Shown in pieces: positions 3,662-63,077 of a stretch of 64,000 nucleotides of DNA. Source of the DNA: Chiloscyllium plagiosum (taxonomy: Eukaryota); the NCBI RefSeq assembly GCF_004010195.1, contig NC_057753.1:7250130-7314129 (forward strand), read 5' to 3'. A program made the position numbers and the translations under genes. The notes under the pieces are model-generated. The model was given only the letters and a program-made list of their open reading frames with translations. It made no database searches and was not told the DNA's origin. Positions within the stretch are counted from its first letter, which is position 1; the number at the start of each line of letters is the position of its first letter.

Positions 3662-4559
3662 TTAACATATTCTGAGGATTTGTTTCCATATAGGTCTCAT
3701 CTATTCAGCAGCACTTGCCTGAATTTGTTCTGTGTTGCTGCATAAATACATGGATTAAGGAAACAACTCAGCAGCTTCAAGATATTTCCTGTTTCCGTTG
3801 CGATATATTCAGGCTTTGAGAAGTCACCTCGGTAATACTTAGGGTGTAACACTCTGGTAATGACCAAACATAGGGAATATGTCAACCAAAGCATTAGAAA
3901 ACTGGCTGACACACAGAATAATAAAATGATAGATTTCCTCTGATTCTCGCCCATTGAATTGCTATGATTCTCATTTCTGTGGCCGTGAAGTCCAATACGC
4001 CTTCTATTTGGCACGAAAATGAAGTAGACGGTTCAAGAATTGAACACGAATATTAGCAGAAAAGGAATCCAAGCAACAGAGGCGCTGTAAAACAAGACAA
4101 ACGTCATCGCAAGAGGGGAAGCTAAGAAAGTTGCTCTTGTTCTACAGCCCCACTGGACGTTTTGAACTATCTTCTCAGGCTCATATGCAAACAACACCGG
4201 AATATTCTTCAACAGGATCAGGGCTGAGACGATTATTAATAATGTGATAGCGGTTCTTTTTGTGCAATACTTTCTTTTAAACTCCTGACAGCAGATCATC
4301 ACAAATCTGTCAAATGTGAAGGATACGGTGAACCAAACAGTTAGATCGAGAGTGATGGTAGTCAGGTATACAATGAATAAGCGTACAGGTGTGTGAGACA
4401 ATAAGGAAAATGGAAAATAATAGTTCAAAATGCGATACACGACAATATTAATGATAATGGCCAATAGATCGGAAGTTGCCATAGCTACCATGTTAACCGA
4501 GATATTCTTGGAAAGACCACAGTCGCCTCGCAAGAGAATCAAAATCGCCATCGAATTCG
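3662..4559 (-). pseudogene. GPR139-like GPCR copy A exon 2, disabled
   Basis: Colinear with copy C (898 vs 899 nt). In-frame TGA at 4033-4035 (TTT in C). A 1-bp deletion near 3701 (AAT A-G ATG vs AAT ATG ATG) gives an early stop at 3697. The conserved TM3 Cys is changed (PVRLF vs PVCLF). The acceptor is intact at 4560-4561. Confidence 0.88.
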
Positions 4560-4791
4560 CTGTAAGAGAGACAGGGAGGTTCAGCACTTAAATAAAAAGG
4601 AATCGTTCATTGAGTGGTGGTGTCATTGGCTTGGCTGGCATTCATTGTCCATGTTTCATTCTCCAAAGTGAAGTTTAGAGACAAATACATTGTTAAGCAC
4701 AGGCAATTCCTTGTCAACCTAACGAGGTAAGGATGGTAGTTTACATCCATTATGAACGTTCGTGACCTATGTAAGGTGGATACCCAGTTAT

Positions 4792-5011
4792 GTATTGCAG
4801 GAAAGGCGCAGCAGGTCAGGCAGCATCCAAGGAGCAGGAGAATCGACGTTTTGGACATGAACCCTCCTTCAGGAATGAGCCTTCCTGAAGAAAGGCCCAT
4901 GCCCGAAACGTCGATTCTCCTGCTCCTTGGATGCTGCATGACCTGCTGCGTCTTTCCAGCAACACATTTTCAGCTCTGATCTCCAGCATCTCCAGTCCTC
5001 ACTTTCTCCTC
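4792..5011 (+). mobile_element. Non-autonomous palindromic Penelope-derived element in the copy A intron
   Basis: Inverted arms at ~4797-4875 and ~4882-4960. Imperfect 14-bp TSD GGATACC(CA/TG)GTTAT at 4778-4791 and 5012-5025. The site is empty in copy C (~49591). Similar to the Neptune 3' end at 61750-61875. Confidence 0.85.
4882..4916 (+). ncRNA. Minimal hammerhead ribozyme motif
   Basis: ttc-CTGAAGA-aaggcccatgccc-GAAACGTC-gat. The mirror copy at 4841-4875 has core mutations. Confidence 0.65.
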
Positions 5012-5829
5012 GGATACCTGGTTATCATTGGATTATGATGTGCAGATGTCAGTTTCGACTAGGGTGAACGAAATTAAAAAGCACCCTTCACCAGCTTTGT
5101 TACAACAGATTTATTTGGAAATACAAGCCTTCAGATCTCTGATCCTTCGTCACGTACATCGTGAAGTAGGATCATAGGTGAAATAATCGATCACGAATTA
5201 TCAAAATGTCATACTCTGATGTGTCATATTGAGCAAACCCAGATTGCTGTCTTTCATCTTTGAGAAAAGGTTACCGTTTTCGATTCATCAAAAAGTCAAC
5301 GCCAGGACTTTTTTCAAGTGACATTCCCGAGTTAACTTAGGGTGTTCACAAAAAAGTGACACCTCAGCTTAGACAATGCATAAATGGTGTGAGGCTGGAG
5401 TCCCTCCGTTTTCCAACCTTGTATCTGAATAGTTCTATTCTCAAAGTGTAAATTCATAAAAAGTTCCATGGATTATCAAAAACGAAATGGCTGCCTACAG
5501 ATTACGTGCTCTTTGAATAGAACAGAATGTATCTACAAATACAATTCTGCAAATGCAAATTAACCCAATAGGTTTATATGTGCGTGTGTGAGCATTGCAT
5601 TAATTCAATAAAATTTCTCAAGTTCAGAATCCAGCGTTGACTGTGGCGGGATGCGGAAACAACAGTCCAGCACATCATCTGGGTGTGTGCATTAATAGTC
5701 CAGCGACTATATCACTACTACATCCCACACCTCACTTTTATATCAGTGTTCCAATGCATGATTGAAATAAGTGTGAAGATACATATTATCAACATTTCAA
5801 CATAAGCCATTAATTCGTGGCATCATTAC

Positions 5830-6150
5830 AGGGTAGTTCAGACCATTCTGTCCAACAACTGCACACAGACGCTGCAAAGAGCAGCCCAACCAGACCCGTG
5901 ACCCGAATCAGGTTATCCCTGGATTACTGATGGCTGATGCACCGACTTTACACGTCCTGTCCACGATGGGCAATTTATAATGGCCAATCCACCTAACATT
6001 CACGGTTTTCAACGGTGGGTGGCAACCAGGTCCAGTGGCTGAAGCTCACAAAAACACGGGGATAACGTACAAACTACATGCAGACTGTCTCCAGAGAATG
6101 GAATCGTTCTCAGTTCCCTGATGCTGTGAGGCAGCAGTGCGAACCACTTA
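5830..6150 (-). mobile_element. Old SINE in the GPCR intron, predating the array (paralogs at ~27840-28135 and ~50410-50735)
   Basis: Decayed gggcaattta...gccaatccacctaac and gctgtgaggcagcagtgc motifs at the same intron position in all three units. Confidence 0.7.
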
Positions 6151-6447
6151 CCTACTGAGACTTTATTGTGCCAGTAACATCGGTATTCTATCCACTGTAG
6201 TCTGATAGTGTAAGGATTAAGGAAAATGAAAATTGCAAACGTCAGTTATATTACGTTATTATTCTTTCAGCAGTGATATTTTGAGAAAGTAGGAAGAGGT
6301 GAAAGTGTCCACAAACAATTGTTGATTTTGCTTTTGGTAACATTGTGTTATAAAACATTGGCATTGGCAATTAGTTATTTTCTCAGTAGGGCATTAACAA
6401 TGCAAGAAAACCATTTACACAAAAACAAAAAGACTAGAATGATTTAC

Positions 6448-6517
6448 CTGGAATGCAAATGACTGCTAGAATCGGATAACATACTTCTTTCATGAACAAA
6501 ATCCATGGTTTAACCAT
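6448..6517 (-). pseudogene. Copy A exon 1 (MVKPWILFMKEVCYPILAVICIP)
   Basis: ATG at 6517-6515, 70 nt, donor CCAG|GTAAAT; near-identical to 51033-51102. Confidence 0.85.
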
Positions 6518-7004
6518 GTTCAACAATCAATGACTTCTGCCAGTGCAAAATATCTGTGGTTGGTGCATAACCAGGATGCTTGCATTTATGAATGCTTCAG
6601 GTCTCCAGACAGTCATTCATGTGATATCATCACTCACGTTAGTTTGAATGAATTCGACAAACGTTTTTCTTTGGAGATATTTTCTGTTAAGTTGTCTGTT
6701 CCCTGCTCAAACTGTGAGTTCAGTCAAATGTTTTATTTTACTGACCTACCGATTTTCAGTTATCTGCGATTCAATGCTTCACTTTTCTAATTTTTTCGTT
6801 CCCTATAGTTTCAGTGTTGTTCACATAAGCATTCGACAAACTTTGATGTTAGCTGTAACGGGGTCCATCTGAAACGACCCACTTCACTGTCCTTTCAATT
6901 CCAAGTGCTTCACTTCTCCCAAGAGCATTTTGTGCGACATAACATTCAATATCGTTCGAAACCTCATTGGCATGACATGAACAAGACTTCTGATATCCAT
7001 GTCT

Positions 7005-8129
7005 GCAACTCCATACAGAACAAAAGAAGTTTGTTATGCCAATCAAACCCCGACTCGTACAATTTTGTTTTACTCCTCGGATTTTCTGCTGTGAATCCCG
7101 AAAGTGGACCCCATTCCACATGACCAGAAGTAAAATGAACAGGAATCGGCTCTTCGTTCCCTCGAGTCTGCTCTTTCATTCAATAGGATCACGGCTGATC
7201 CAAAATTCATTGCACTGGCCTTCCCCCCTTATGCCTTGATTCCAGGGCAGTTTGAAAAGTGTAGTTGGTTACAGTGTTGGGAACAGTCTGCGTGAAAGAA
7301 TAGAAACCAATGTCTCCTGCAATGTTACAAAAAACAACATAAGACCACAGCTACAGTTCTGGAAGCTTTTGAAACAATCAAATTGCAACTGAAAGGGTTC
7401 AGAAAAGTTTAACCACCATATTTTCTAGTTTATAGGGTTATATTTATGTGAATAAATTGGGAGACGGATTTTCTTTCCTTGGAGCAGGAAAGATTCAGGG
7501 GATGTATAAAGCGTAAAGAAGTATTTAAAAAATGAGAAACATAGCTAGCGAAGGCAGGAAAAAAAAGTTCCTTTTGGTGAAGGGATCCGTTACAGGGCGG
7601 GGAGAATGGACAGAAAGCAAGAAACAGCAGGGTTCAAGGAAATGTGATGGAATAGAATCAGTGAAATGATAGTGGGAACCGAGCTGTCACTATCACTGTG
7701 TGTAGAAAAGATAGACACACTTCTAACAGTGAAGAAGTATTTTAAAGTGCACTGGATATATCAAGGCATACAAGGGTTATATCAAACCATGATATGTTGT
7801 TTTTTGTAACATTGCAGGAGACATTGGTTTCTATTCTTTCACGCAGACTGTTCCCAACACTGTAACCAACTACACTTTTCAAACTGCCCTGGAATCAAGG
7901 CATAAGGGGGGAAGGCCAGTGCAATGAATTTTGGATCAGCCGTGATCCTATTGAATGAAAGAGCAGACTCGAGGGAACGAAGATCCGATTCCTGTTCAAT
8001 TTACTTCTGGTCATATGGAATGGGGTCCACTTTCGGGATTCACAGCAGAAAATCCGAGGAGTAAAACAAAATTGTTCGAGTCGGGGTTTGATTGGCATAA
8101 CAAACTTCTTTTGTTCTGTATGGAGTTGC
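7005..8129. repeat. 337-bp inverted duplication (arms 7005-7341 and 7793-8129, 451-bp spacer)
   Basis: The arms are reverse complements with ~4 mismatches. The second arm is absent from units B and C. Confidence 0.93.
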
Positions 8130-8408
8130 CTGACATTCATATGATGATTGCAATCAGATACAGAATCATGAAGAGAATGCAGAATTCCTCCAGTTATTTC
8201 ATCGAGAGATTTAGAAACGAAATGCTGTTCAGATAATCTTAAGAAAGTTGTTTTTTTTTCCTTAACTTGATTATCAGTTCAATCTTTCCGTATTCCGTTT
8301 TCTAACAGCTTATCTAATTGCAAAAGAATCTTAACGAACGCAGAAATTGTCAGAATTCATTAGGTATTTCCAACGAAAAGCTGCCTAATGCTGAACACCA
8401 TTTTTCAA

Positions 8409-8617
8409 AGTTAAAAATCACACAACATCAGTTACATCACACTGCAAATTTTTGCGATAAATTCTGTGTTACGATCGAGCTCTCCACAAACATCTGATGA
8501 AGGAGCGTCACTCCGAAAGCGAGTGTGCTTCCAATTAAACCTGTTGGACTATAACCTGGTGTTGTTTGATTTTTAACTTTGTACGGCCCAGTCCAACGCC
8601 GGCATCTCCGAATCATG
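8409..8617 (+). mobile_element. Short non-autonomous Penelope-derived element
   Basis: Perfect 12-bp TSD ACCATTTTTCAA at 8397-8408 and 8618-8629. The leading ~24 nt is an inverted copy of 8556-8580. The site is empty in copy C (~52715). Contains CTGATGA...GAAA. Confidence 0.82.
8491..8525 (+). ncRNA. Hammerhead-like motif, cleavage triplet probably mutated
   Basis: cat-CTGATGA-aggagcgtcactcc-GAAAGCGA-gtg. Stem II is ggag/ctcc; the expected U of NUH is G here. Confidence 0.55.
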
Positions 8618-10451
8618 ACCATTTTTCAACCACTCGACTGCATTTTCAAGGATTCTGGTGAGTTTAATTTTCTTCTGGACCTTGAGGCAGTACGTTGTTG
8701 CGATGCTATTTGGTGATTACAGCTTCAACTTATTCCTATATTCACTTCTGTGCTAAACTATGAAGGTAGTGTTGAAGGATGAAAATTATAGGAAAAAAAC
8801 TGAATCATTTTGGTTAGGAGTACTCCGATTGATAATAACTTCGGAAAATGTTGTGCACAATCCTGGTGTAGGATTTGTTGAGCAGACGGAGGGATGTCCT
8901 GGGCAATGAAATTGAAGAGCTTGGGAGACAAGTCGGAACATCTCAGCGATAATGTACCACATTATCCTGTGCACTGTGCCCTCCACAACCTACTGGACAA
9001 AAGAGGAATATGAAGTATGTGGAACAGCTTCTGGAGTCAAAGGTGTCCTCTGATGAGTAAGTAAAGAGGTAACAATAATGGGCCAGGGAATAATTCTCGC
9101 TTAAGGACAAAACTGGTTGAGAAATGATTCAAGATAGATACCCCTCAACGAACTTAATTTGAAGATAACCTTGTGTGGCTGAGTTACCTGGAAAGTACTT
9201 GCTTTTGTCTGTTTCCTTCGGGAATCCACCTCGTTGGAGTATATCTTGTGAATTGCGAATCATTTTCATCTGGAATTGTTTTGGACAAAGAGGACGATAT
9301 TTTGCGAAACATTGTGATCTTGAGATCACTTTAAACCAACAAATGCATGACAAACTGAATATTTTCTGCTGGTTGTTCCAGATTACATTGATTCTACCTG
9401 GTGGATATCTACAAGTGGGGTATCTAGGCAGAAGCAAGATTTGGGGCATTTGCTCCTGATAAAGTAATTTTCTGCTCATAATATGTTCCTGCCGGCCAGA
9501 ATCCCCTTTCAAGAAATTTTGTAGAACGACATTATGTTTGCCTAAATTAACAGATTTAAAATGCCTTTTTTGTTGTTTTAATGTAGGTTTTTGCCATTTA
9601 ATACATTCTCCTGTTTACACATGCATTATCAAGCTGTTTTTTGGGATAGCGTCAATTCACTCAGTTGGTTAGATGCGTTGCTTGCAATGCACATTGACAA
9701 CAACAGAGTAGATTAGCACACAGGTGACGTTAGCATGAAAACCTCTTCTTTCTAACCTCTCTCGACGTCTGAAGTGTTCTGAATCTCAGGGTAAACCCAC
9801 CACTAGTCACCTCTCTCTCTCATTGGAGAACATGATGTTACGATCAACTGTTTCATTTCCAGTGGTTTGGAACCATTAATTGTTGAGTGAAGTAAAGTAT
9901 TCGAGTGTTGAGGCAAGTATTCCCTTGCATCAGAAAGTAGCAAATGCTGAAAGTACAAAACAGTTCAGAGAGCATATGTGCAGCAAGTGAAATTTAGTTT
10001 GGAATATTGTCGACTGATCGAGTTGGATCCTTGTGTCTGTTTCTATGCTATATGACTCTATCACGCTTTATATTAAGAGATAAATCAGTCAAGGTATATT
10101 CAGTAATTACATGACATTAATGGGGCTGTGCTTGATATACAGCTCAAGAGAGGAATGCTTGCATTCTATCCCATTTCTGTTAAACAAAACGTGAAGTCTC
10201 AGGAGTTCATCTGGTTATACCTCCAATTGCTGTTGCCGTAAACCATTAAAGGGAAAGTTTCAACTGGGAATTGTTAGTTTTCGGTCTTGCTGTTATTTGT
10301 AAACGAAACTGCAATTTTAAAAGTGCTCTGTGATACCACGCTTAGACTATCACGAGTGGTTTTAATCTCACTCGCTGAGATAGAATAAATTTGCCAGAGT
10401 GGAAGTTCACAAAACTGTCACGAGAGACAGCAGAACTGTCCTCGAGGAGAG

Positions 10452-10734
10452 ATTAGATTACTTCCAGTATAGAAACAGGCCCTTCGGTCCAACAACTCCA
10501 CACCGACCCGCCAAATTGCAACACACACAGGCCCATTCTCCTACGTTTACCCCTTCACCTAACACTACGGGCAATTTAGCATGGCCAATTCACCTAACCT
10601 GCACATTTTTGGATTGTGGGAGTCTCGGGGAGAATGTGCAAATTCCACACAGAGGATCGCCTGAGGCAGGAATTGAACGCGGGTCTCTGGCGCTGTGAGG
10701 CAGCGGTTCTAACCACTGTGCCACCGTGCCGCCC
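10452..10734 (-). mobile_element. HE1-like tRNA-derived SINE (shared with unit C)
   Basis: Minus-strand head GGCGGCACGGTGGCACAGTGGTTAG with A and B boxes (GTTCAATTCC); (TCTAA)-type tail. Confidence 0.88.
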
Positions 10735-13599
10735 TCGAATGGAGTTGGGTGCTCGTTTATTCAATACAGCTTAGAAGGATGAGCAATGATCTGACTGCAA
10801 GGTATACTTTTTTAACGTTGCTGCTCTGACCGATACAGGGAGCATCCTTCGCTTGGTTTGTGACTCTTTCACCAGGTGTCGAAGTCTCAGGATATTGGGT
10901 AGGACTGAGATGAGGGAACATTTATTCAGTTAGAGAACTGTGAACATGTGGAGTTCTCACCTACAGCAGGCAATGGTGGTCACGTCACAGAATATATTCA
11001 ACAGATTGTTTTTAGTGTTTGTAGAGGCATGGCTGCCTTCGGCGATAGATGACATGGCCCCTCGGTTCAAGCATAAGTAGACATTGGCACGAAATGTTGG
11101 CCTTCTCTCCAACACCATTGGACATACAACAGTTGGTTACAAGCTTATTCGATTGGTGTACATCCTGACATGGAACATCTTGAGTGCCTGACTGACTGTT
11201 CCCAATACTCTTGACTACTACCAGATTCTGTCGCAAAGTTACTGTGCTGTGGGGCCCTGTGCAAAGGAACTCTCTTTTGACGAGAATGAGCTGAGTGAAA
11301 ACTTGACAACAATCCTGCTCTGGGTTCATGCGAAGCAGCAAGGCAAGACTGAAGTCTTCGGAGTCAAATGTCTTTATTTGAGGAGGCAAACAGCCCAGGG
11401 AACAGTGGACAAGCATTGTGTTTGACAATAAACAAAGGGCTCAGGGATGCAACCTTATTCCAAGTCATGAGCTAAATGCATTTCTTCCAGCGCACAATGT
11501 GTTCCTTGCTGGAGCATTTCACGTGGAACCTAGAAGTGCACAAGTGTGTTGTAAGTAGATCACAAGTGTGCCCGGTCTGTGCTTGCAGTTTGCCATACTA
11601 TAAATGCTCAGGCCTGGGTGTGGCATTGTGGGGAACGTTTAACATTGCATGATGGGGAAAAATGACTAATTCTTGACTTAAGGATCAGCAAATTAAACAG
11701 GTCTGTGGCAAAAGTTCAGAAACAGCTTTCACAACGAGTCTGAATGTAAACAGAATGTAAACAAGCTTGATAAAACGTCATTAATCTTCTTAATGGCTCC
11801 TTGTATAATTTGAACTGCAGAGTTTATCTAAACAAAATGTCCATGCAACAGAAATAGAGTCATAGAATGATGCAAACGATTAATGTTTGTAAAACTAGTA
11901 AGGCAAATGTTCAGCACGACAGATGACGTACATTTCATGAAATCTGCAATTTCTCAGCATATTTTACAATTTATGATATTACTCTTTTTCTTTCTAAAGA
12001 TGCAGTCGACTTGGAGAGTGCCGGGATCCTTTGATTTGTCCCTCTGTTAATTGTTTTAGCCATAAACACTGCATGTGGGTCTTTTAAAATAAAGACTGCA
12101 CGTTTGACAGTTCAAGTTAGCTTTTTTTAAAGCTTTCGCTGAGCTTTGAGTTTAATCTCACAGATTTCTTCCACTTAAAGTGCGTTTAGATGTGGGGACA
12201 TGGAGCTTTCTGGAAAAGGCGTGCATGGACCCATGGACCTTGTCATGAGATCTCGGGAACTGGTGTTCATCTGAGTGGATTTTCAGGGCAAGGAGCGAGC
12301 TGAGGTCACCATTCTCCTTCTCTATGTTGCATTATTGACAGTTCTTCTCAGCTACCTGGAATATCCAAACCACATCAGCGTTTAAAATGAGGAACAGTTC
12401 GGGTTAGGGTACCTTTTCAAACTATTTTGGGGATGCCCAGCCTCGCCATATCACCGAGAATAGCTCTGCAGTGAGATGATCCGTTTCTTGAGGTGGACCT
12501 CACAAAACATCACAGACAATTTTCCATAAATCTCATTACATTCCACGTCCCATAGAACTCAGTGGGAGTAACCTGCTTTACGCTACTCTCACGTTGTGCA
12601 AGCCCCACGATCGGTATCCTAGATCCAACGGCCTGACCAGTGAGGGTAAATTTGCTCAATTACAAACATGTTTCCAATCTAATTCGGAAACGTCTAAATC
12701 GAAGCTTAATACGAAGCCTAATTCGGGCCTGCAAGATTTAACACAGTTTCGTTGAAATTATCGGTGTTGGTTCTACAGTTAACTGACTAGCTATTTTGAA
12801 GTTGGAGAGAATGACAGAAATTATCTGAGTCAAATCTATTTCTGAATTAGATATTCGCAAATTGATTGTTGTCTTTCTCTTGAAGTCTGTCTCGGGACTG
12901 AATATAAGTAAACGCACTGACATAAAATAAATCAAAACTTTGAATGCAGGAGACCTAGAACAACCAAAATAAAAGGTAATGCTGGAGAAACTCATTATGT
13001 GTGGCGAGGTCGTGGAAAGAGAAAGATGCAGCGTTGGCATAACAAATCTAATGACCTTGAATTCTGTTTCTGTCTGTACAGATGCTGTGCTTTCTTTGCT
13101 GTCGCTTTCTGCTTTTGATCATTTACAGAAAAATGTTCGCGGAAACCTAAAAATATAGATGTTCTCCGTTGCATCTGTTTTGGCCCTTCCACGCACAAAA
13201 TCCCCAAAATATTTCAAAATATCAAATCAATGTTTTGAAACGTTGATTTTGTTTCGTAGAAACAGCTGTTAAAATGTAGCAAATATCAGAATTGACTAAG
13301 AAAACCTTAGTTTCCTGATCCAATTGAGAAGAACGGCTATGATGGCTGAAGATTGGGCTCCATCGATAGGGAAAGAGTTGAAACCAGGGTCATGCAAAGG
13401 AACTGGTTGTAAATAATATTGAAACAAATACAGAAATCTCTGTTGGGACTCAGCAGAATATTTCGAATCTGTGGGGGGAAGAGTGGTAACCCGCGTGAAA
13501 AATTATTCAAATTAATGAATTGACAACAAAGGTGCTGATTTGATTACCGTCTGTACCTTATCGTTTCGTATGTATGACACGTTCAGCAAACGGTTACGA

Positions 13600-15745: not shown

Positions 15746-16199
15746 CCTTCTGGATGTAGGTTTGCTCGCTGAGATGGGAGAGTTTTTTTTTAGACCTTTT
15801 GTCACCACACTATTTTGTAAATGAAATTTATTTTGCTTGCTTTTTGTATCGGGTCTTCCAAGTTCATTAGCTGCTTTTTTTATGTAAAATACTTGGCAAA
15901 ACCACTAAATATCACATTGGACCAACAGGAAGAAAATTAGCCACAAGGATACATGAACATCAACTTGCCACAAAATGACAAGAACCACTCTCATTATTAT
16001 CTTTACATATATGTGAGAACGGGAACCACTTCGACTGGGTCAACCACAGAAAATGATGTCACCGCAGGAAATAGCGTAGTCACAGGTAATGACGACACCA
16101 ACCGGCTTTGGGTGATTTCCAACACGCATTCAGCACTCTAAGTCATCGTGCAATACAAAACTAACCATAGTGGGAGTGGTATTAAAAGGAAATGGAAAT

Positions 16200-19224: not shown

Positions 19225-19278
19225 ATTCTGAATTTTTCAAGACTGTTTACTATATTCTGAATTTTTCAAGACTGTTTT
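19225..19278. repeat. ~29-bp tandem duplication
   Basis: attctgaatttttcaagactgttt x2; single copy at ~40745. Confidence 0.85.
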
Positions 19279-47766: not shown

Positions 47767-47799
47767 TCGACGTTTCGTGCCAGAGTCTATCATCAGGGT
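47767..47799 (-). ncRNA. Decayed hammerhead motif
   Basis: CTGATGA-tagactctggcac-GAAACGTC; the core is intact but stem II pairing is eroded. Confidence 0.5.
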
Positions 47800-51032: not shown

Positions 51033-51102
51033 CTGGAATGCAAATGACTGCTAGAATCGGATAACATACTTCTTTCATGAGCAAAATCCACGGTTTAACC
51101 AT
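51033..51102 (-). CDS. Copy C exon 1 (MVKPWILLMKEVCYPILAVICIP + G)
   Basis: ATG at 51102-51100, 23 codons + 1 nt, donor CCAG|GTAAAT. Phase 1 joins exon 2 to give P-A-N-S-M, matching the TM1 P-A-N intron position known for GPR139. Intron 49371-51032. Confidence 0.85.
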
Positions 51103-53834
51103 ATTCAATTATCATTTACTTCTGCCAGTGCGAAATATCTGTGGCTGGTGCATGACCAGGATGCTTACATTTATGAATGCTTCAGGTCTCCAGAGAGTCA
51201 TTCATGTGATATCATCACTCACGTTAGTTTGAATGAATTCGACAAACGTTTTTCTTTGGAGATAACTCATGTTTTCTGTTAAGTTGTCTGTTCCCTGCTC
51301 AAACTGTGAGTTCAATCAAATGTTTTATTTTACTGACCTACTGACTTTCAGTTATCTGAGATTCAGTGCTTCACTTTTCCAATTTTTTCGTTCCCTATAG
51401 TTTCAGTGTTGTTCACATAAGCATTCGACAAACTTTAATGTTAGCTGCAACGGGGTCCATCTGAAACGACCCATCTCACTGTCGTTTCAATTCCAAGTGT
51501 TTCACTTCTCCCAAGAGCATTTTGTGCGACATTATATTCAATATCGTTCGAAACCTCATTGGCATGACATGAACAAGACTTCTGATATCCATGTCTGCAA
51601 CTCCATGGGGTACTCGGATAAATATAACAGTAATACTGAACAAAATATGTTTGTTATTCCATCAAACCCCTACTCGTACAATTTTGATTTACTCCCCCGA
51701 TTTTCTGCTGTCAATCCCGAAAGTGGACCCTATTCCATATGACCATAAGTAAAATGAACAGGAATCGGCTCTTCGTTCCCTCCAGTTTGCTCTTTCATTC
51801 AATAGGATCACGGCTGATCCAAAATTCATTGCACTGGCCTTCTCCCCTTATCCCTTGATCCCAGGGCAGTTTGAGCATGATAATGATAGATTATAGCACT
51901 CTTTAGTGTAGTTGGTTACGGATGTTAGGAACTGTCTGTGTGAAAGAGTAAAAAAAATATATCCTGCAATGTTACAAAAAACAACATAAGACCACAGCTA
52001 CAGTTCTGGAAGCTTTTGAAACAATCAAATTGCAACTGAAAGGGTTCAGAAAAGTTGAACCACCAAATTTTCAAGTTTATAGGTTTGTATTTATGTGAAT
52101 AAATTTGGAGACGGATTTTCTTTCCTTGGAGCAGGAAAGATTCGGGGGATGTATAAACCGTAAAGAAGTATTTTTTAAAAATGATAAACATAGCTAGCGA
52201 AGGCAGGAAAAAAAATGTTCCTTTTGGTGAAGGGATCCGTTACCGGGCGGGGAGAATGGACAGAAAGCAAGAAACAGCAGGGTTCAAGGAAATGTGATGG
52301 AATAGAATCAGTGAAATGATAGTGGGAACCGAGATGTCACTATCACTATGTGTAGAAAAGATAGACACACTTCTAACGGTGAATAAGTATTTTAAAGTGC
52401 ACTGGATATATCAAGACATACAAGGGTTGTATCATACCATGATAGTTGCCTGACATTTAGATGATGATTGCAATCAGATACAGAATCATGAAGAGAATGC
52501 AGAATTCCTCCAGTTATTTCATCGAGAGATTTAGAATCGAAATGCTGTTCAGCTAAACTTATGCAAGTTTTTTTGTCCTTAACTTGATTATCAGTTCAAT
52601 CTTTCCGTATTCCGTTTTCTAACAGCTTATCTAATTGCAAAAGAATCTTAACGAACGCAGAAATTGTCAGATTTCATTAGGTATTTCCAACGAAAAGCTG
52701 CCTCATGCTGAACACCATTTTTCAAACACAAGACTGCATTTTCAAGGAATCTGGTGAGTTTAATTTTCTTCTCGACCTTGAGGCTGTACGTTGTTGCGAT
52801 GCTATTTGGGGATTACAGCTTCAAATCATTCCTATATTCACTTCTGTGCTAAACTATGAAGGTAGTGTTGAAGGATGAAAATTATAGGAAAGAAACTTAA
52901 TCATTTTGTTTAGGAATACTCCGATTGAGAAGAACTTAGGAAAATGTTGTGCACAAACGTGGTCAAGGATTGGTTGAGCCGACGGAGGAATGTCCTGGAC
53001 ATTGAAATTGGAGAGCTTGGGAGTCAAGTCGGACCATCTCAGCGATAATGTATCACATTATCCTGTGCACTGTGCTCTCCACAACCTACTGGTCAAAAGA
53101 GGAATATGAAGTACGTGGAACAGCTTCTGGAGTCAAAGGTGTCCTCTGATGAGTAAGTAAAGATGTAACAATAATGTGCCAGGGAATAATTCTTGCTCAA
53201 GAACAAAACTGCTTGAGCAATGATTCAAGATAGATACCCCTCAACGAACTTAATTTGAAGATAACCTTGTGTGGCTGAGTTACCTGGAAAGTACTTGCTT
53301 CTGTCTGTTTCTTTCGGGAATCCACCTCCTTGGAGCATGTCTTGTCAATTGCGAATCATTTTTATCTGGAATTGTTTTGGACAAAAAGGACGATATATTG
53401 CGAAACATTGTGATCTTGTGATCACGTTAAACCAACAAATGCATGCACAAACTGAATATTGTCTGCTGGTTGGTCCTGATTACATTGATTCTACCGAGTG
53501 GATATCTAAAAGTGGGGTATCTAGGCAGAAGCAAGATTTGTGGCATTTGCTCCTGAAAAAGTAATTTTTTGCTCATAATATAGAACATAGAAGAATACAG
53601 CGCAGTACAGGCCCTTTGGCCCTCGATGTTGCGCCGATCCAAGCCCACCTAACCTATACTAACCCACTATCCTCCATATACCTATCCAATGCCCGCTTAA
53701 ATGCCCATAAAGAGGGAGAGTACACCACTGCTACTGGCAGGGCATTCCATGAACTAACGACTCGCTGAGTGAAGAACCTACCCCAACTTCAGTCCTATAT
53801 CTACCCCCCACTTAATTTAAAGCTATGCCCCCTT

Positions 53835-54160
53835 NNNNNNNNNNNNNNNNNNNNNNNNNNNNNNNNNNNNNNNNNNNNNNNNNNNNNNNNNNNNNNNNNN
53901 NNNNNNNNNNNNNNNNNNNNNNNNNNNNNNNNNNNNNNNNNNNNNNNNNNNNNNNNNNNNNNNNNNNNNNNNNNNNNNNNNNNNNNNNNNNNNNNNNNNN
54001 NNNNNNNNNNNNNNNNNNNNNNNNNNNNNNNNNNNNNNNNNNNNNNNNNNNNNNNNNNNNNNNNNNNNNNNNNNNNNNNNNNNNNNNNNNNNNNNNNNNN
54101 NNNNNNNNNNNNNNNNNNNNNNNNNNNNNNNNNNNNNNNNNNNNNNNNNNNNNNNNNNNN
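53835..54160. other. Assembly gap
   Basis: Run of N. Confidence 1.
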
Positions 54161-54826
54161 GGTGGTAGGTCGGAGTAGGATGGAGGCGGAGAGGTCAAGA
54201 AGAAGACTGCAGGTCAGGAAGGCGGTGCCGGGCTGGAGGGATCCGGCTGAGACAATGTGGGGGGAGGGGGGATGAAGAAACTGGTGAAGTCCATGTTCAT
54301 CCCCTGTGGTTGGAGGGTTCCCAGTCGGAAGATAAGACGCTCCTCCTCCGACCGTCGGGTTGTTGTGGTTTGGCGGTGGATGAGTCCAATGACCTGCATA
54401 TCCTCGGTGGAGTGGGAGGGGGAGTTGAAATGCTGTGCTACAGGTTGGTTGGGTTGGTTCGTCCGGGTGGCCCAGAGGTGCTCTCTGAATCGCTCCGCAA
54501 GTAGGTGGCCTGTCTCCCCAATATAGAGGAGGCCACACCGGCTGCAGCGGATGCAGTAGATGATGTGGGTGGAGGTGCAGGTGAATCTGTGGCGGGTATG
54601 GAAGTTTCCTTTGGGGCCTTGGAGAGAAGTGAGGGGGGGGGTGTGGGCGCAAGTGTTGCACCTCCTGCGGTTGCAAGGGAAGGTGCCGGGAGTGGAGGTT
54701 GGGTTGGTGGGGGGTATGGATCTGACAAGGGAGTCGCGGAGGGAGTGGTCTCTACGGAAAGCTGATAGAGGAGGGGAGGGAAATATATCCTTGGTGGTGG
54801 GGTCCGTTTGGAGGTGGCGGAAGTGA
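54161..54826 (-). mobile_element. Neptune-type Penelope fragment (Cys-rich linker + GIY-YIG), apparently nested in a CR1
   Basis: CNRRRCNTC...FTCTSTHIIYCIRCSRCGLLYIGETG...RFREH; flanked by CR1 sequence and a gap. Confidence 0.85.
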
Positions 54827-56298
54827 CCTATTGGACCTATTCCTACCCTAGTCATTCTTTTATATACCTATAGAAAGCCTTAGGGTTTTCCCTAATCCTA
54901 TCTACTAAGGACCTTTCGTGTCCCCTCCTTGCTGCTTTTAGCTCTCTCTTCAGGTCCTTCCTGGCTACCCTATAACTCTCAATCGCCCCAATTGAACCTT
55001 CACGTCTCATCTTGGGATAGGCCGCCCTCTTCCATTTAACAAGGGATTCCAATTCTTTATTAAACCACGGCTCCCTCGCACGACCCTTTCCTCCCTGCCT
55101 GACAGGTACATAATTATCAAGGACACTCAATAGTTGCTCCTTGAACAAGCTCCACATATCATTTACACTCTTGCCTTGGAGTCTACTTTTCCAAGCCACA
55201 CATCCTAAGTCATGCCTCACCGCATCATAATTTCCCTGACCCCAGCTATAACTCTTGCCCTGTAGTACACACTTATCCCTCTCCATCACGAGAGTAAAAA
55301 TCACCGAATTATGGTCACTATCCCCAAAGTTCCTGCCAGCCAGAATCCCCTTTCAAGAAATTTTATAGAACGACATTATGTTTGCCTAAATTAACAGTTT
55401 TAAAATGCCAATTTTTTTGTTTAAATGTAGGTATTTGCCATTTAATACATTCTCCTGTTTACACATGAATTATCAAGCTGTCTTTTGGGATAGCGTCAAT
55501 TAACTCAGTTGGTTAGATGCATTGCTTTCAATGCACATTGACAACAACAGAGTAGATTAGCACACAGGTGACGTTAGCATGAAAACCTCTTCTTTCAAAC
55601 CTCTCTCTACTTCTGAGGTGTTCTGAATCTCAGGGTAAACCCACCACTAGTCACCTCTCTCTCTCTCTCATTGGTGAACAGGATGTTACGATCAACTGTT
55701 TCATTTCCAGTGGTTTGGAACCATTAATTGTAGAGTGAAGTAAAGTATTCGAGTATTGAGGCAAGTATTCCCTTGCATCAGAAAGTAGCAAATGCTGAAT
55801 GCACAAAACAGTTCAGACAGCATTTGTGCAGCAAGTGAAATTTAGTTTGGAACATTGTCGACTGATCTGGTTGGATCCTAGTATCTGTTTCTATGCTATA
55901 TGACTCTATCACGCTTTTTATTAAGAGATAAATCAGCCAAGGTATATTCAGTAATTACATGACATTAATGGGGCTGCGCTTGATATACAGGTCAAGACTG
56001 GAATGCTTGCATTCTATACCATTTCTGTTAAACAAAACGTGAAGTCTCAGGAGTTCGTCTGGTTATACCTCCAATTGCTGTTGCCATAAACCATTAAATG
56101 GAATGTTTCAACTGGGCATTGTTTGTTTTAGGTCTGGCTGTAACCTGTAAACGAAACTACAGTTTTGAAAGTGCTCTGTGATACCACGCTTAGACTATCA
56201 CGAGTGGTTTTGTTCTCACTCGCTGAGATAGAATACATTTGCCAGATTGGAAGTTCACAAAACTGTCACGAGAGACAGCAGAACTGTCCTCGAGGAGA

Positions 56299-56595
56299 GA
56301 TTAGTTTACTTACAGTGTAGAAACAGGCCCTTCGGCCCAACAAGTCCACACCGACCCGCCAAAACGCAACACACATAGACCCACTCTCCTACGTTTACCC
56401 CTTCACCTAACACTCCGGGCAATTCAGCATAGCCAATTCACCTAACCTGCACATTTTTGGATTGTGGGAGGAAACCCACGCAGTTTCGGGGAAAATGTGC
56501 AAACTCCACACAGAGGATCGCCTGAGGCAAGAATTGAACACGGATCTCTGGCGCTGTGAGGCAGCGGTGCTTACCACTGTACGACCGTGCCACCC
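56299..56595 (-). mobile_element. HE1-like SINE at the site equivalent to 10452-10734
   Basis: Same flanks (gaggagaga / atggagttgggtgctcg). Confidence 0.88.
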
Positions 56596-57422
56596 TCTAA
56601 TGGAGTTGGGTGCTCGTTTATTCAATACAGCTTAGAAGGATGAGAGATGATCTGACTGCAAGGTATAATTTTTTAACGTTGCTGGACTGACCGATACAGG
56701 GAGCATCCTTCGCCTGGTTCGTGACTCTTTCAGAAGGTGTCGAAGTCTCAGGATATTGGTTGCGACTGAGATGAGGGAACATTTCTTCTGTTAGAGAACA
56801 GTGAACATGTGGAGTTCTCACCTGCAGCAGGCAATGGTGGTCACGTCACAAAATATATTCAACAGATTGTTTTTAGTGTTTGTAGAGGCATGGCTGCCTT
56901 CAGTGATAGATGACATGGCCCCTCGGTTCAAGCATAAGTAGACATTGGCACTAAATGTTGGTCTTCCCTCCAACATTGGACATACAACAGTTGGTTACAA
57001 GCTTATTCGATTGGTGTACTTCCTGACATGGAACATCTTGAGTGCCTGACTGACTGTTCCCAATACTCTTGACTACTACCAGAGTCTATTGCAAAGTTAC
57101 TGTGCTGTGGGGCCCTGTGCAAAGAATGAAGCTGAGTGAAAACTTGACAACAATCATGGTCAATGTTCATGCGAAGCAGCAAGGCAAGACTGAATTCTTA
57201 GGAGTCAAATGTCTTTGTTTGAGGAGGCAAACAGCCAAGGCAACGGTGGACTAGCATTGTGTTTGACAATAAACAAAGGGTTCAGGGATGCAACCTTAGT
57301 GCAAGTCATGAGCTAAATGAATTTCTTCCAGCGCACAATGTGTTCCTTGCTGGAGCATTTCACGTGGAACCTAGAATTGCACAAGTGTGTTGTAAGTAGA
57401 TCAGAAGTGTGCCCGTCTGTTT

Positions 57423-57728
57423 AGATTAGATTACATTATAGTGTGGAAACAGGCCCTTCAGGGCCAACAAGTCCAACCAACCCGCCGAAGCGTAACCCAC
57501 CCATACGTTTAACCCTTTCCTAACATTACGGGCAATTTAGCATGGCCGATTCACCTGACCTGCACATCTTTGGACTGTGGGAGGAAACCGGAGCACCCAG
57601 AGGAAACCCGCACAGACATGGGGAGAACGTGCAAACTCCACACAGTAAGTTGCCTGAGGCGAGAATTGAACCCGGGTCTCTGGCGCTATGAGGCAGCAGT
57701 GCTAACCACTGTGCCACCGTGCCACCCA
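57423..57728 (-). mobile_element. HE1-like SINE specific to unit C
   Basis: Full tRNA-like head; TSD TCTGTTT at 57416-57422 and 57729-57735; empty site at ~11578. Confidence 0.9.
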
Positions 57729-60700
57729 TCTGTTTTTGCAGTTTGCCATATTATTAAAAACTCAGGCCTGGGTGTGGCATTGTGGGGAACGTTTAACATT
57801 GCATGATGGGAAAAAAAGACTAATGCTCGAATTAAGGATCAACAAATTAAACAGGTCTGTGGCAAAAGGTCAGAAACAGCTTTCATGACGAGTCTCAATG
57901 TAAACAAATTGTACAAGCTTGATATAACGTCAGTAATCTTCTTAATGGCTCCTTGCATAATTTGAACTGCAGAGTTTATCTTAAACAAAATTTCCATGCA
58001 ACAGAAATAGAGTCATGGAATGATGCAACCGATTAATGTTTGGGAAAACTAGTAAGGCACATGTTCAGCACGACAGATGACGTACATTTCATGTAACCTG
58101 CAATTTCTCAGCATATTTTAAAATTTATGATATTACTCTTTTTCGTTGTAAAGGTGCAATTGATAGTGCCGGGATCCTTTGGTTTGTGCCTCTCTTATTT
58201 GTTTTAGCCATAAACACTGCATGTAAGTCTTTTTAAATAAAAACAGAACGTTTGACAGTTCAAGTTTCTTTTAAGCTTTCGCTGAGCTTTGAGTTTGATC
58301 TCACAGATTTCTGCCACTTAAAGTGCGTTTAGATGTGGGGACATGGAGCTTTCTGGAAAAGGCGTGCGTGGACTGTGTCATGAGATCTTGGGAACTGGTA
58401 TTCATCTGAGTGGACTTTCAGGGCAAGGAGCGAGCTGAGGTCACCATGCACCTTCTCTATGTTGCATTATTGACAGTTCTTCTCAGCTACCTTGCTCAAC
58501 ATATTAGGTAAGATAGGAAGCTGATCATGTATTAGCTAAGATGCGTTGCTAATGCACCATTTAACAACTTTAATTCCATGTATTTTTTCACTCATTACTG
58601 CCTAACATTATTGCTAAACGGAAGGACAATGCTGTCACTTTCGTAAGGGTATTTTACCCTTGGGTTTCTTTTTCTAAGGATTTCGGAATGGCAGATGTGT
58701 GTATACGTTTTGGGAAGCTGTTGTTAGCAGGCGCAGAAGCTGAAATGTGCAAAGGATTCCATGCTTCAGCAGATGATCACGGATTGACGTTTCTCTCTGA
58801 CATCTCTCCATCCTATAAGAACCTAAATTTGAATTTGCATTTTGCCAAGGGGTGTGTTTATGAGCGTTGTGGGAATTCTAACCACTCCATATTTAAGTTG
58901 TAATATTGAATTCGTTGTTTTTTCAGATTGTTTAGTTAGTTATTCTAAATTATGCATTCGTTCGTTTTTGTTTCAATTGTAGTATTTGAATACGTTATGT
59001 TTTGCTTAAAGCCGAGTGGTTTGACCAGCTGCCTCACACCTGGAATATCCAAAACATATCAACGTTTAAAATGAGGAACAATTCGGGTCAGGCTGCCTTT
59101 TCAAAATATTTTGGGGATGCACAGCCCCGTCCATATCACCGAGAATAACTCTGCAGTGAGATGATCCGTTTGTTGAGGTGCACCTCACAAAACATCACAG
59201 ACAATTTTCCATAAATCTCATTGCATTCCACTTCCCATAGGACTCAGTGGAAGTAACCTGCTTTACGCAACTCTCACGTTGTGCAAGCCTCACGATCTGT
59301 ATCCTAGATCCAACGGCCTGACCAGTGAGGGTAAATTTGCTCAATTATTAACAAGTTTCCAATCTAATTCGGAAACGTCTAAATCAAAGCTTAATACGAA
59401 GCCTAATTCGGGCCTACAAGATTTAACAGTTTAGTAGAAATTGTCGGTGTTGGTTCTACAGTTAACTGACGAACTATTTTGAAGTTGCAGAGAATGAGAG
59501 AAATTATCTGAGTCAAATCTATTTCTGCATTAGATATTCGCAAATTAATTGCTGTCTTTCTCTTGAAGTCTGTATCGGGACTGAATATAAGTAAACGCAC
59601 TGACATAAAATAAATCAAAACTATGAATGCTGGAGATCTAGAACAACCAAAATAAAAGGTAATGCTGGAGAAACTCGTTAGGTGTGGCGAGGTCGTGGAG
59701 AGAGAAAGATGCAGCGTTGGCGTTACAAATCTAATGACCTTGAATTCGGTTTCTGTCTGTACAGATGGTGTGCTTTCTTTGCTGTCACTTTCTGCTTTTT
59801 ATCATTTACAGAAAATTATTCGCACAGACCTAAATATATAGACGTTCTCCGTTGCATCTGTTTTGGACCTTCCACGCACAAAATCCACAAAATATTTCAA
59901 AATATTAAATCAATGTTTTGAAACGTTGATTTTTTTTTCGTAGAAACAGTTGTTAAAATGTAGCAAATAGCAGAATTGACTAAGAAAACCTTAGTTTCCA
60001 TTTCCAGCTGAGAAGAACAGCTATGATGCCTCCTCGAGGACACCTCTTCCTACCACCCCCTTGACAATGACCCCACCCCCCATCACCAAACCATCATCTC
60101 CCAGACCATACAGAACCTCATCACCTCAGGAGATCTCCCACCCACAGCTTCCAACCTCATAGTCCGGGAACCCCTCACTGCCCGGTTCTACCTCCTTCCC
60201 AAGATCCACAAGCCTGACCACCCTGGCCGACCCATTGTCTCAGCATGCTCCTGCCCCACTGAACTCAACTCTACCTACCTCGACACTGTCCTATCCCCCC
60301 TAGCCCAGGAACTCCCCACATACGTCCGAGACACCACCCACGCCCTCCACCTCCTCCAAAACTTCCATTTCCCCAGCCCCCAATGCCTCATCTTCACCAT
60401 GGATATCCAAACCCTCTACACCTCCATCCGCCATGACCAGGGCCTCCAAGCCATCCGTTATTTCCTCTCCAGACGTCCCCAACGGTACCCTTCCACCGAC
60501 ACACTCATTCGTTTGGCCGAACTGGTCCTCACCCTTAACAATTTCTCCTTTGAATCCTCCCACTTCCTCCAAACCAAAGGAGTAGCCATGGGCACACGTA
60601 TGGGCCCCAGCTATGCCTGTATCTTTGTTGGCTATGTAGAGCAGTTGATCTTCCGTAATTACACCGGCACCACTCCCCACCTCTTCCTCCGCTACATTGA

Positions 60701-60801
60701 TGACTGCATTGGCGCCACCTCGTGCTCCCGCGAGGAGGTTGAGCAATTCATCAACTTCACCAACACATTCCACCCTGACCTTAAAATTTACCTGGACCAT
60801 C

Positions 60802-61579
60802 NNNNNNNNNNNNNNNNNNNNNNNNNNNNNNNNNNNNNNNNNNNNNNNNNNNNNNNNNNNNNNNNNNNNNNNNNNNNNNNNNNNNNNNNNNNNNNNNNNN
60901 NNNNNNNNNNNNNNNNNNNNNNNNNNNNNNNNNNNNNNNNNNNNNNNNNNNNNNNNNNNNNNNNNNNNNNNNNNNNNNNNNNNNNNNNNNNNNNNNNNNN
61001 NNNNNNNNNNNNNNNNNNNNNNNNNNNNNNNNNNNNNNNNNNNNNNNNNNNNNNNNNNNNNNNNNNNNNNNNNNNNNNNNNNNNNNNNNNNNNNNNNNNN
61101 NNNNNNNNNNNNNNNNNNNNNNNNNNNNNNNNNNNNNNNNNNNNNNNNNNNNNNNNNNNNNNNNNNNNNNNNNNNNNNNNNNNNNNNNNNNNNNNNNNNN
61201 NNNNNNNNNNNNNNNNNNNNNNNNNNNNNNNNNNNNNNNNNNNNNNNNNNNNNNNNNNNNNNNNNNNNNNNNNNNNNNNNNNNNNNNNNNNNNNNNNNNN
61301 NNNNNNNNNNNNNNNNNNNNNNNNNNNNNNNNNNNNNNNNNNNNNNNNNNNNNNNNNNNNNNNNNNNNNNNNNNNNNNNNNNNNNNNNNNNNNNNNNNNN
61401 NNNNNNNNNNNNNNNNNNNNNNNNNNNNNNNNNNNNNNNNNNNNNNNNNNNNNNNNNNNNNNNNNNNNNNNNNNNNNNNNNNNNNNNNNNNNNNNNNNNN
61501 NNNNNNNNNNNNNNNNNNNNNNNNNNNNNNNNNNNNNNNNNNNNNNNNNNNNNNNNNNNNNNNNNNNNNNNNNNNNNNN
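60802..61579. other. Assembly gap
   Basis: Run of N. Confidence 1.
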
Positions 61580-61749
61580 TCCGGACTTGTCCGACCTGCC
61601 CAGCTCTTTTTCCACCTATCCACTCCACCCTCTCCTCCCTGACCTATCATCTTCTCCTCCCCCACTGACCTATTGTACTCTATGCTACTCTATCCCAACC
61701 CCCACCCTCCTCTAGCTTATCTCTCCACGCTTCAGGCTCTCTGCCTTTA

Positions 61750-61783
61750 CTCCTGATGAAGGGCTTTTGCCCGAAACGTCGAT
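61750..61783 (+). ncRNA. Minimal hammerhead ribozyme motif in the Neptune 3' end
   Basis: tc-CTGATGA-a-gggc-tttt-gccc-GAAACGTC-ga, with a perfect stem II. Confidence 0.75.
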
Positions 61784-62175
61784 TTCGAAGCTTTTCGGAT
61801 GCTGCCGAATTGCTGTGCTCTTCCAGCACCACTGATCCAGAATCTGGTTTCCAGCATCTGCTGTCATTGTTTTTACCCCGAATTGGTATCTGTCATTAAG
61901 CAAAGGGACATATAAAAGAGCAGACGGAAGAATGGCTCAAATCAGAGACTGGTAACAGTGGTGTTTTCGTTCCAGAAAAGGTAGTTGAGGTTAATAGCTG
62001 ACCCAAGTAGGCAGGGACTTGAATAGTCCAACTTTCTCTCATCATGGATGACGGTCCTTATCTCTCACAAAGTGAGGACTTGCAATCTCAAACTGTCTAA
62101 TTCAGGTTTGGGTGGGTGCGGCATTTTGGGAAACTCTGGTGGTAAAGAATAAATCAACGAATATTATTTTGTTTT

Positions 62176-63077
62176 TTAACGTTTAATGCAACTGGCTATT
62201 CTGGCAAAGCGACATAACATCACCTTTTGCAGTTCCTCGCGGAATTTATTTTGTGATACTGCGTAAATGAAGACATTGTTGCAGGAACTGACTAACTGAA
62301 GCAGGTTGGTCATCTCTTGAAGAATGTACCGTGGATTATTGAAATCCAGGCCAGTGAAGTATCCCTCGCCTGAAATTCGCACGTAGAGGAAGCGTCCAAT
62401 ATATGTGACCCACAGGAGAAGAAAGCTCATTGAGATGGCAAAAAGCATAATAATGGACCTCCTGCGTTTGGCCATCTCATGATCTTGTCGATGTTCGGTT
62501 CCCCTGAGCCTCTTGCGGGATCTGCTAGCCGCTATGATGTGTTTGACAGTAAAGGTGTTGAGCAACAGAATGAGGAAGAATGGGAGGAATGGGGTTAAGG
62601 TATGGTCAATCCAGTCGTAGACTTGCCAGACTGACAAAATGTAGTAACTGTCCTTGATACCGCAGAACCAAGGCACCCCATCCAGAATGTACAAGGGCTC
62701 GTGAATAAAGAAGTAAGGGACATTCTTGACGCAACTCATAGCACATATGATTCCGATGATTAGTGCTGCAGATTTCTCAGTGCAGTATCTGGTCTTCAGA
62801 CTCTGGCAGCAGATGGCCACAAAACGGTCGATGGTGAAAGCCACAGTCAGCCAGACTGAACCATCCCGTGTGGTATAAGCCAGCATACTGGTGACTGTAC
62901 ATCCAGGGGTGGTGGACAAGAGACTGTAGCGAAAGTAAGTGCCACCTATTCGGTTGAGGATCACGGCAATGACAATAACAAGGAAATCATTCACTGCTAT
63001 CATCACTAGATAGAAGGTGATGCAACGAGATAGTCCACACCGCCCTCGGGATAGAACTATGATCGCCAGCAAGTTGG
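62176..63077 (-). CDS. Divergent GPR139/GPR142-like GPCR, copy D, exon 2 (open); exon 1 probably beyond the window end
   Basis: The 298-aa ORF has LSRGRCGLSRC, WLTVAFTIDRFVAICC, PWFC, LTPFLPF, FLLLWVT and FIYAVSQNKFREEL. Acceptor tttttcatgtctcacag|CC AAC TTG gives the same phase-1 (A)-N-L junction. Confidence 0.88.

Follow-up and report, generated by a model that had tools for sequence, protein, structure and literature searches.

The 64-kb window, by which we mean the whole stretch of Chiloscyllium plagiosum DNA that was analyzed (contig NC_057753.1, positions 7,250,130 to 7,314,129), contains four receptor paralogs, A, B, C, and D, all on the minus strand. They span positions 3662..63077, from the last base of the former stop codon of A to the first base of exon 2 of D. 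Their sequences place them in a large family of shark and ray receptors that is distinct from GPR139, despite the usual database name of its members, "probable G-protein coupled receptor 139". The family is apparently undescribed and, judging from its sequences, is likely to have a chemosensory role.

Receptor genes and pseudogenes in the window

The exon-2 copies were located by translated searches of the window with its two long seven-transmembrane reading frames. Gene C is intact. Its exon 1 (51102-51033, minus strand, 70 nt) begins with an ATG, comprises 23 codons and one additional nucleotide, matches the N-terminus of the family, and ends at a GT donor from which it splices in frame to exon 2. 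The intron (49371..51032, minus strand, 1662 nt) is in phase 1 and has GT..AG ends. Exon 2 (49370-48472, minus strand) follows the AG acceptor as an open frame that extends from the second half of transmembrane helix 1 (TM1) to the stop codon and matches Pfam 7tm_1 with an E value of 7e-19. The spliced coding sequence of 969 nt encodes 322 amino acids, and its sole stop codon is the terminal one. C itself is absent from the results of the protein searches and may be unannotated.

D is represented in the window by exon 2 (63077-62176, minus strand), which is open, encodes 299 residues after the splice site, and matches Pfam 7tm_1 with an E value of 2e-22. Exon 1 of D is absent from positions 63078-64000, 923 bases that were searched with the N-termini of 60 relatives, and thus lies beyond the window. 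The exon-2 protein of D is identical in 299 of 299 residues to a full-length, 323-residue record of Chiloscyllium plagiosum (XP_043538399.1), which suggests an intact D gene in a bamboo shark. The initial annotation described C and D as strongly diverged, and their exon-2 proteins indeed share 41.6% amino-acid identity; blastn finds no nucleotide match between the two exons. The database records nearest to C and D (P0121 and P0436) have consecutive accessions on one 15.3-Mb sequence of the same species.

Pseudogene A has the exon structure of C. Its exon 1 (6517-6448, minus strand) is 93% identical to the exon-1 region of C, and its exon 2 (4559-3662, minus strand) is 92% identical to that of C at the nucleotide level. 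The frame is interrupted by a TGA at codon 199 and by a one-nucleotide deletion near position 3702, and the conserved cysteine of TM3 (C3.25) is gone. Pseudogene B retains exon 1 (28828-28759, minus strand; 88% identity to the exon-1 region of C) with 23 open codons and a donor site, and has lost about 1.24 kb, including the whole of exon 2, at a junction at 26998..27009 (minus strand). In the alignment of B with C, most of the intron matches up to position 49586 of C, and the match restarts in the 3' flank at 48345. The sequence between these positions, which is absent from B, comprises the acceptor, the complete exon 2, and 3' flank. A search of the six frames of the window with the family profile recovers these pieces of A–D and no additional copy. 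The four same-strand paralogs of the initial annotation, with C intact, exon 2 of D open, A inactivated by nonsense and frameshift mutations, and B devoid of exon 2, are therefore confirmed.

A, B, and C each lie within a unit of approximately 17-20 kb (about 19 kb) that is repeated head to tail and is collinear over most of its length. Collinear self-matches give approximate limits of 2234..19422 for the unit holding A, 21169..40911 for that holding B, and 40933..60031 for that holding C. The units of A and C are 87-95% identical, with about 91% identity in non-coding DNA, and the unit of B is about 80% identical to either of them in non-coding DNA. The single tandem array proposed previously thus holds for A, B, and C, which are whole-unit segmental duplicates, but D is a member of another subfamily, which is of ancient origin. 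The proposed birth-and-death evolution agrees with the unit-wise tandem duplication and with the loss of two of the four copies.

The comparison of A with C yields a nonsynonymous divergence (dN) of 0.058 and a synonymous divergence (dS) of 0.138, with a dN/dS ratio of 0.42 (Fisher p 0.0009). When P0121 is used as a third sequence, 22 amino-acid changes in 282 columns are assigned to the branch of A and seven to that of C (p 0.008), and those in A include the cysteine of TM3 and further positions that are nearly invariant. The asymmetry of the branches, together with the dN/dS ratio, indicates that C was constrained while A decayed. D is 97% identical to a protein of Hemiscyllium ocellatum. 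These sequence comparisons indicate that the open frames of C and D are kept under purifying selection. P0121, which is 89% identical to C, was rejected as the ortholog of C: because the exon-2 protein of D exactly equals a record from the same species, P0121 is better regarded as a close paralog, and it was used solely for assigning changes to branches.

The 51-52 bp directly 5' of the start codons of C, A, and B (51103-51153, 6518-6568, and 28829-28880, minus strand) are similar to the initial 51 bp of exon 1. The score of this resemblance was reached by 6, 7, and 44 of 1000 shuffled sequences, respectively. The stretches open with an ATG and read MHQP, which resembles the usual N-terminus of the family. 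Their probable origin is an ancient duplication of the 5' end of the exon, the upstream copy of which now ends in stop codons.

Size and distribution of the family

Protein searches identified 555 relatives of D among 1,464 candidates and 918 relatives of C among 2,448. The best 120 of each group were analyzed as clusters at 90% identity, and the two sets do not overlap. Of these 240 best matches, 237 clusters carry the names of sharks or rays, from 17 species in all, and three are unnamed, in line with the lineage expansion suggested in the initial annotation. At least 39 clusters belong to Heptranchias, at least 38 to Pristiophorus, and at least 42, all separated at the 90% identity threshold, to Heterodontus francisci, which argues against a family of few genes. 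No chimaera is present among the 240 matches listed. Among the species examined, the sequences indicate that the family has expanded in sharks and rays only. The numerous tandem paralogs and the pseudogenes of the family are a feature expected of chemoreceptor repertoires. A literature search, the coverage of which lay mostly outside subscription journals, found no title or abstract describing the expansion.

Relationship to GPR139 and other class A receptors

C and D are class A (rhodopsin-like) G-protein-coupled receptors (GPCRs). Both proteins contain N1.50, D2.50, the cysteine at 3.25 with its partner in the second extracellular loop (ECL2), the D/E-R-Y/F motif, P5.50, W6.48, and N7.49/Y7.53. 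The structure predicted for exon 2 of C, with a predicted local distance difference test score of 85, comprises seven helices and a hairpin in ECL2. Comparison of the model with class A structures results in Z scores of 24-25, at which many peptide-type receptors are tied. No single relative stands out in the fold comparison (Foldseek, VIA), and GPR139 is not among the matches listed. At E values of up to 0.01, the Pfam matches are to 7tm_1 and, for D, also weakly to Srx (E 1.5e-5); neither C nor D matches the OR, TAAR, V1R, V2R, or T2R families at this threshold.

The family profile, in which C and D were combined with 100 of the 240 matches to a total of 102 sequences, recovers 146 representatives with E values of at most 1e-30. 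Identities were looked up for 26 of the 150 listed profile matches. Among these 26, the best-scoring proteins from outside the elasmobranchs are those of a salamander (247 bits), coelacanth (217 bits), and silverside (196 bits), followed by an amphioxus protein (154 bits, partial) and unnamed Srw-matching proteins (about 120-134 bits). Human GPR139 scores 75.5 bits against the same profile. It is the top-scoring solved structure, the others reaching at most 56 bits; chemokine receptors come next with 50-56 bits and are equalled by neurotensin and prolactin-releasing peptide (PrRP) receptors. The designation of the window genes as GPR139/GPR142-like is therefore appropriate in that GPR139 is the nearest solved structure by sequence, but several other receptors score higher. 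The profile scores and the trees described below indicate that the window genes are not orthologs of GPR139 or GPR142, nor one-to-one orthologs of another known conserved receptor.

GPR139 (human protein, PDB 7VUG and 9M42) and GPR142, which are activated by tryptophan and phenylalanine (Trp/Phe; PMC5430874), share with the family the membership of class A and the PAN motif of TM1. Over residues 16-301, a visual count gives 69 identities between D and human GPR139, or about 24%, whereas zebrafish GPR139 is reported to be 70% identical to the human protein (PMC7946892). The GPR139 residues that matter for Trp/Phe are F3.33, H5.42, W6.48, and N7.39 (PMC5430874). In the alignment with human GPR139, these positions are occupied by T, Y, W, and N in C and by Y, D, W, and N in D; W6.48 and N7.39 are shared, but F3.33 and H5.42 are changed. 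The Trp/Phe ligand that had been borrowed from GPR139 and GPR142 is thus not borne out, with two of the four key residues identical in each protein. It is further weakened by the unnamed vertebrate, amphioxus, and Srw-matching receptors that outscore GPR139 on the family profile. The family also carries the TM3-ECL2 cysteine pair, whereas GPR139 aligns an aspartate at the TM3 cysteine. Furthermore, the family comprises hundreds of paralogs and has other receptors as much nearer relatives.

The sister group of the shark and ray family is an orphan receptor of amphibians and sturgeon that is likewise named "probable GPR139" (Xenopus tropicalis XP_031757816.1, Pleurodeles XP_069092602.1, and Acipenser RXM35349.1). 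It resembles the family in length and in its short N-terminus, which in the family extends about 10 residues ahead of TM1. Each of 20 amphibian genera contributes a single cluster, and the gene is also present in sturgeon (46%); no amniote or teleost occurs among 25 matches of a word-limited search. In trees computed without true GPR139 or GPR142 sequences, the shark and ray set and the amphibian/sturgeon gene form a branch with 100/100 support under both models. The monophyly of the shark and ray set is weakly supported under LG+G4 (69/42, 49 rows) and has 91/95 under a mixture model (36 rows). In contrast to the shark and ray family, the amphibian gene is single-copy, its products are 66-74% identical to that of Pleurodeles, and its pocket is nearly invariant and basic at positions 6.51, 6.55, and 7.35. 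We infer that the expansion arose from a single gene of ancestral jawed vertebrates, which amphibians still have as one copy with an invariant pocket. No function of the amphibian/sturgeon orphan was found in the literature.

The next-closest vertebrate branch consists of coelacanth and teleost orphans (Latimeria XP_005988539.1; 196-217 bits). They differ from the family in forming a separate clade, with ERF in place of DRF and a serine at 6.48. Sets of coelacanth and fish receptors called "GPR210" have been named beside GPR139/142 (Rinne et al. 2019, PMC6504862), and the word "shark" is absent from that article. The coelacanth and teleost orphans are probably among these sets, the taxon lists of which resemble that of the branch.

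Nematode Srw receptors and the protostome MIP, sex-peptide, and FMRFamide receptors belong to the same broad branch of class A, and the shark and ray expansion is independent of them. The wider clade is described as including MIP/sex-peptide, FMRFamide, proctolin, and myosuppressin receptors (PMC8514136), and Srw as a family of chemoreceptors that descends from receptors of the peptide type (PMC3963977). C and D have no match to Pfam Srw (PF10324), and a few of their relatives carry Srw as a precomputed secondary match. The unnamed outgroup proteins match Pfam Srw, and the atlas neighbours of the family include Srw-rich clusters.

Variability of the predicted ligand pocket

Residue positions were numbered from the conserved motifs and divided into 35 pocket positions, which we take to be the ligand-pocket sites of class A receptors, 63 other positions in the outer half of the transmembrane region, and 90 inner positions. 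The sets compared were the C subfamily (n=120, excluding P0229, which groups with the side of D), the D subfamily (n=121), 32 full-length deep representatives picked from 150, and 20 amphibian orthologs, from which two partial sequences were left out. The mean column entropies of the pocket, other outer, and inner positions are 1.49, 1.16, and 0.77 in the C subfamily (pocket versus outer, one-sided p 0.039, and 0.005 by residue class). The corresponding values are 2.25, 1.81, and 1.09 in the deep representatives (p 0.007) and 0.96, 1.19, and 0.73 in the D subfamily. The inner half has the lowest variability in all three shark sets, and the inner face has a mean identity of 46% across members.

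The amphibian orthologs have entropies of 0.08, 0.60, and 0.50 in the pocket, other outer, and inner positions (two-sided p 2.7e-6), and 29 of the 35 pocket positions are invariant. The invariant pocket in this control indicates that the pocket variability belongs to the expanded family and not to the fold or the numbering. The amphibian gene also retains the F3.33 of GPR139, and its pocket is basic, with R2.61, K6.51, K6.55, and R7.35. Most members of the D subfamily have a charged pocket with R3.36, D5.39, D5.42, and E7.36. Three of the seven changes on the branch of C are in the pocket (p 0.045), as are five of 19 when P0121 is included (p 0.077), numbers that are too small to count.

Candidate promoter element and RNA reads

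A candidate promoter element precedes C (51169..51203), A (6584..6618), and B (28896..28930), in each case on the minus strand; the promoter of D falls beyond the window. It consists of a homeodomain-like hexamer, GAATGA, one base, and an EBF-like decamer, TCTCTGGAGA, and is located at -101 in C and A and at -102 in B. The EBF-like word of A has one additional mismatch. The element is accompanied by a TATA-like word, CATAAAT, at -73. Between -118 and -41, B and C are identical in 72 of 77 bases, in comparison with 83% in the flanks (p 0.005, for a stretch chosen post hoc). A composite Lhx2/Ebf probe from mouse has the same layout of hexamer, one base, and decamer, and the Ebf half of the composite site tolerates pyrimidine/purine runs (PMC5608512). 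The element is suggestive only, a weak and post hoc pointer to olfactory-type control. An EBF word with one mismatch near position 51870 was rejected, since it is at the edge of a repeat fragment. A degenerate exon-1 pattern, used to seek independent promoters in metagenome contigs, was found at four loci, none of which match C or D.

In about 2% of a single-cell run of unstated tissue, 1,370 reads were assigned to the region of C (47400-53400, 85% likeness). Nearly all of them were on repeats; two exon-2 bins had a depth below 1, with no splice joint, and a sister run contributed 0 reads. In the same single-cell run, mismatched reads covered three exon bins of the region of D (61600-64000, 80%) to a depth of 0.6-0.9. 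A run that was only guessed to be RNA provided one 602-nt contig for D, with 29 differences in 176 nt. These reads are evidence neither for nor against expression of C and D. Summed contig depths from the DNA-like runs do not represent copy numbers and were left aside.

Proposed function of the receptor family

The tandem gain and loss of genes, the conserved signaling face, and the diversified pockets form the pattern of a ligand-recognition repertoire. The explanation to which we give somewhat better than even chances is a birth-and-death chemoreceptor repertoire of class A GPCRs that is likely olfactory, with tissue and ligands being predicted. Olfaction is the likeliest modality because of the layout of the candidate promoter, because the sister gene is distributed in aquatic groups, and because the known repertoire of sharks is small. 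Cartilaginous fishes have large olfactory organs, but their known olfactory receptor genes number only about 10-50, according to PMC10116579, where the small repertoire is explained as discrimination traded for sensitivity.

In such a chemoreceptor repertoire, unequal crossing-over would generate the tandem duplicates of about 19 kb. Some copies have decayed, namely A and B, and others, C and D, stay open under purifying selection. The side facing the G-protein is conserved, and the predicted pocket varies between subfamilies and within the subfamily of C. Each gene may be turned on in scattered sensory neurons through the homeodomain and EBF element. The receptors are predicted to bind water-soluble ligands, which for the D subfamily, with its charged pocket, may be charged amines or amino acids, and for the C subfamily may be more varied and less polar. 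Signaling would pass through Go or Gq and act on TRPC2 in the microvillous neurons of the shark nose; shark olfactory neurons are reported to bear microvilli and to have TRPC2 and Go as markers (PMC10116579).

The family resembles the OR, TAAR, V1R/ORA, and V2R/OlfC families in its tandem clusters, pseudogenes, short compact coding region, and variable pocket, and possibly in Lhx2/EBF-type control, but its sequences point to a separate origin. A more specific proposal, the chances of which we put a little below even, is that the receptors constitute a fifth vertebrate olfactory family in sharks and rays. This family would have an independent origin in an orphan receptor within the GPR139/MIP/Srw branch, would reuse the Lhx2/EBF code, and would far outnumber the known ORs, TAARs, V1Rs, and V2Rs.

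Several observations weigh against an olfactory repertoire. The pocket of the D subfamily is no more variable than the other outer positions (p 0.92), and the difference between pocket and outer positions in the C subfamily has a two-sided p of 0.078. The entropies were calculated without tree weighting, on an assumed list of pocket positions. The window contains no strict EBF palindromes, and the homeodomain core is GAAT, without TAAT. The relaxed pattern, which was picked after the site was seen, occurs twice, in comparison with 1.6 occurrences expected by chance from 12 simulated windows, and the copies in A, B, and C are not independent. A catshark brain and olfactory library is reported to have no GPCR among the 50 most abundant, specific genes, a list from which V2Rs are likewise missing (PMC11979771). 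The main text of the preprint of that study contains no word beginning with "139".

Tandem expansion with variable pockets also describes immune receptors, and EBF also drives B-cell genes, with which the EBF-like site would fit. The family could accordingly be a sensing repertoire of immune or barrier tissues, similar to formyl-peptide or Mas-related receptors, that is expressed in leukocytes, skin, gill, or gut and detects microbial or damage molecules. Such a repertoire would likewise show birth-and-death evolution and variable pockets, and chemokine receptors follow GPR139 in the profile scores, tied with neurotensin and PrRP receptors. We nevertheless consider this possibility unlikely. 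The position of the EBF-like word one base from the homeodomain-like word corresponds to the olfactory composite spacing, the N-terminus preceding TM1 is too short for binding of the chemokine type, and the deeper relatives are peptide- and Srw-type receptors.

A still less probable alternative is that most of the copy number is incidental to segmental duplication of DNA rich in repeats, with a small functional core and the remaining copies drifting. Two dead copies out of four and the duplication of whole units along with their retroelements are compatible with drift, and C is devoid of several near-invariant residues of the family, such as an aspartate in the TM5-6 loop and the residue at 7.47. 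However, the dN/dS ratio of A and C is 0.42 although one of the pair is a pseudogene, and D is conserved between genera. Each species has dozens of full-length members, subfamilies are common to sharks and rays, and the inner face is conserved.

Slightly more doubtful is the idea that the receptors read endogenous signals, such as neuropeptides, metabolites, or reproductive cues, in the brain, gut, or gonad, as the ancestral gene probably does. The invariant pocket of the amphibian sister gene fits one fixed ligand, the pocket of the D subfamily is also fairly conserved, and the wider clade contains the neuropeptide-type receptors listed above (PMC8514136). However, an endogenous ligand gives no reason for paralogs to number in the hundreds, to differ in their pockets, and to be lost often. 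That the genes are GPR139 or GPR142 proper, multiplied and sensing Trp/Phe, is very improbable: the database names, the top PDB match by sequence, and the retained W6.48 and N7.39 speak for it, but the low identity of D to GPR139, the 75.5 bits of GPR139 against 120-247 for other receptors, the changed F3.33 and H5.42, and the TM3 cysteine opposite an aspartate speak against it.

If the family is expressed in the nose, its large number of unrecognized receptors would revise the account of sharks as having traded discrimination for sensitivity (PMC10116579). Even if it is not olfactory, it represents a very large vertebrate GPCR expansion masked by a misleading automatic name. The conserved single-copy sister gene is present in Xenopus and is open to laboratory study. 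With its near-invariant basic pocket, the amphibian/sturgeon orphan is a good target for ligand discovery, and, should the fifth-family proposal be true, the ligand of the amphibian gene would show the starting point of the expansion.

Repeats and flanks of the duplicated units

Positions 1-1860 of the window match the upstream flank of the A, B, and C units, so a further unit and gene are probably located to the left of the window. Retroelement pieces with matches to Pfam RVT_1 and GIY-YIG, which are presumably Penelope-like, occur at 19443-21164, 54214-54867, 60027-61715, and 1914-2234, and related fragments are present at both ends of unit A. Fragments of LINE reverse transcriptases, which we take to be CR1-like, are located at 44029-45132 (RVT_1, E 2e-36), 24477-25731, and 46425-46946. 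Upstream of A there is a 350-bp inverted duplication (6993-7341 and 7793-8142, 98% identity), and the intron of A contains an inserted self-complementary repeat (4790-4967); neither is present in C. Runs of N at 53835-54160 and 60802-61579 are within retroelement sequence and clear of the receptor genes.

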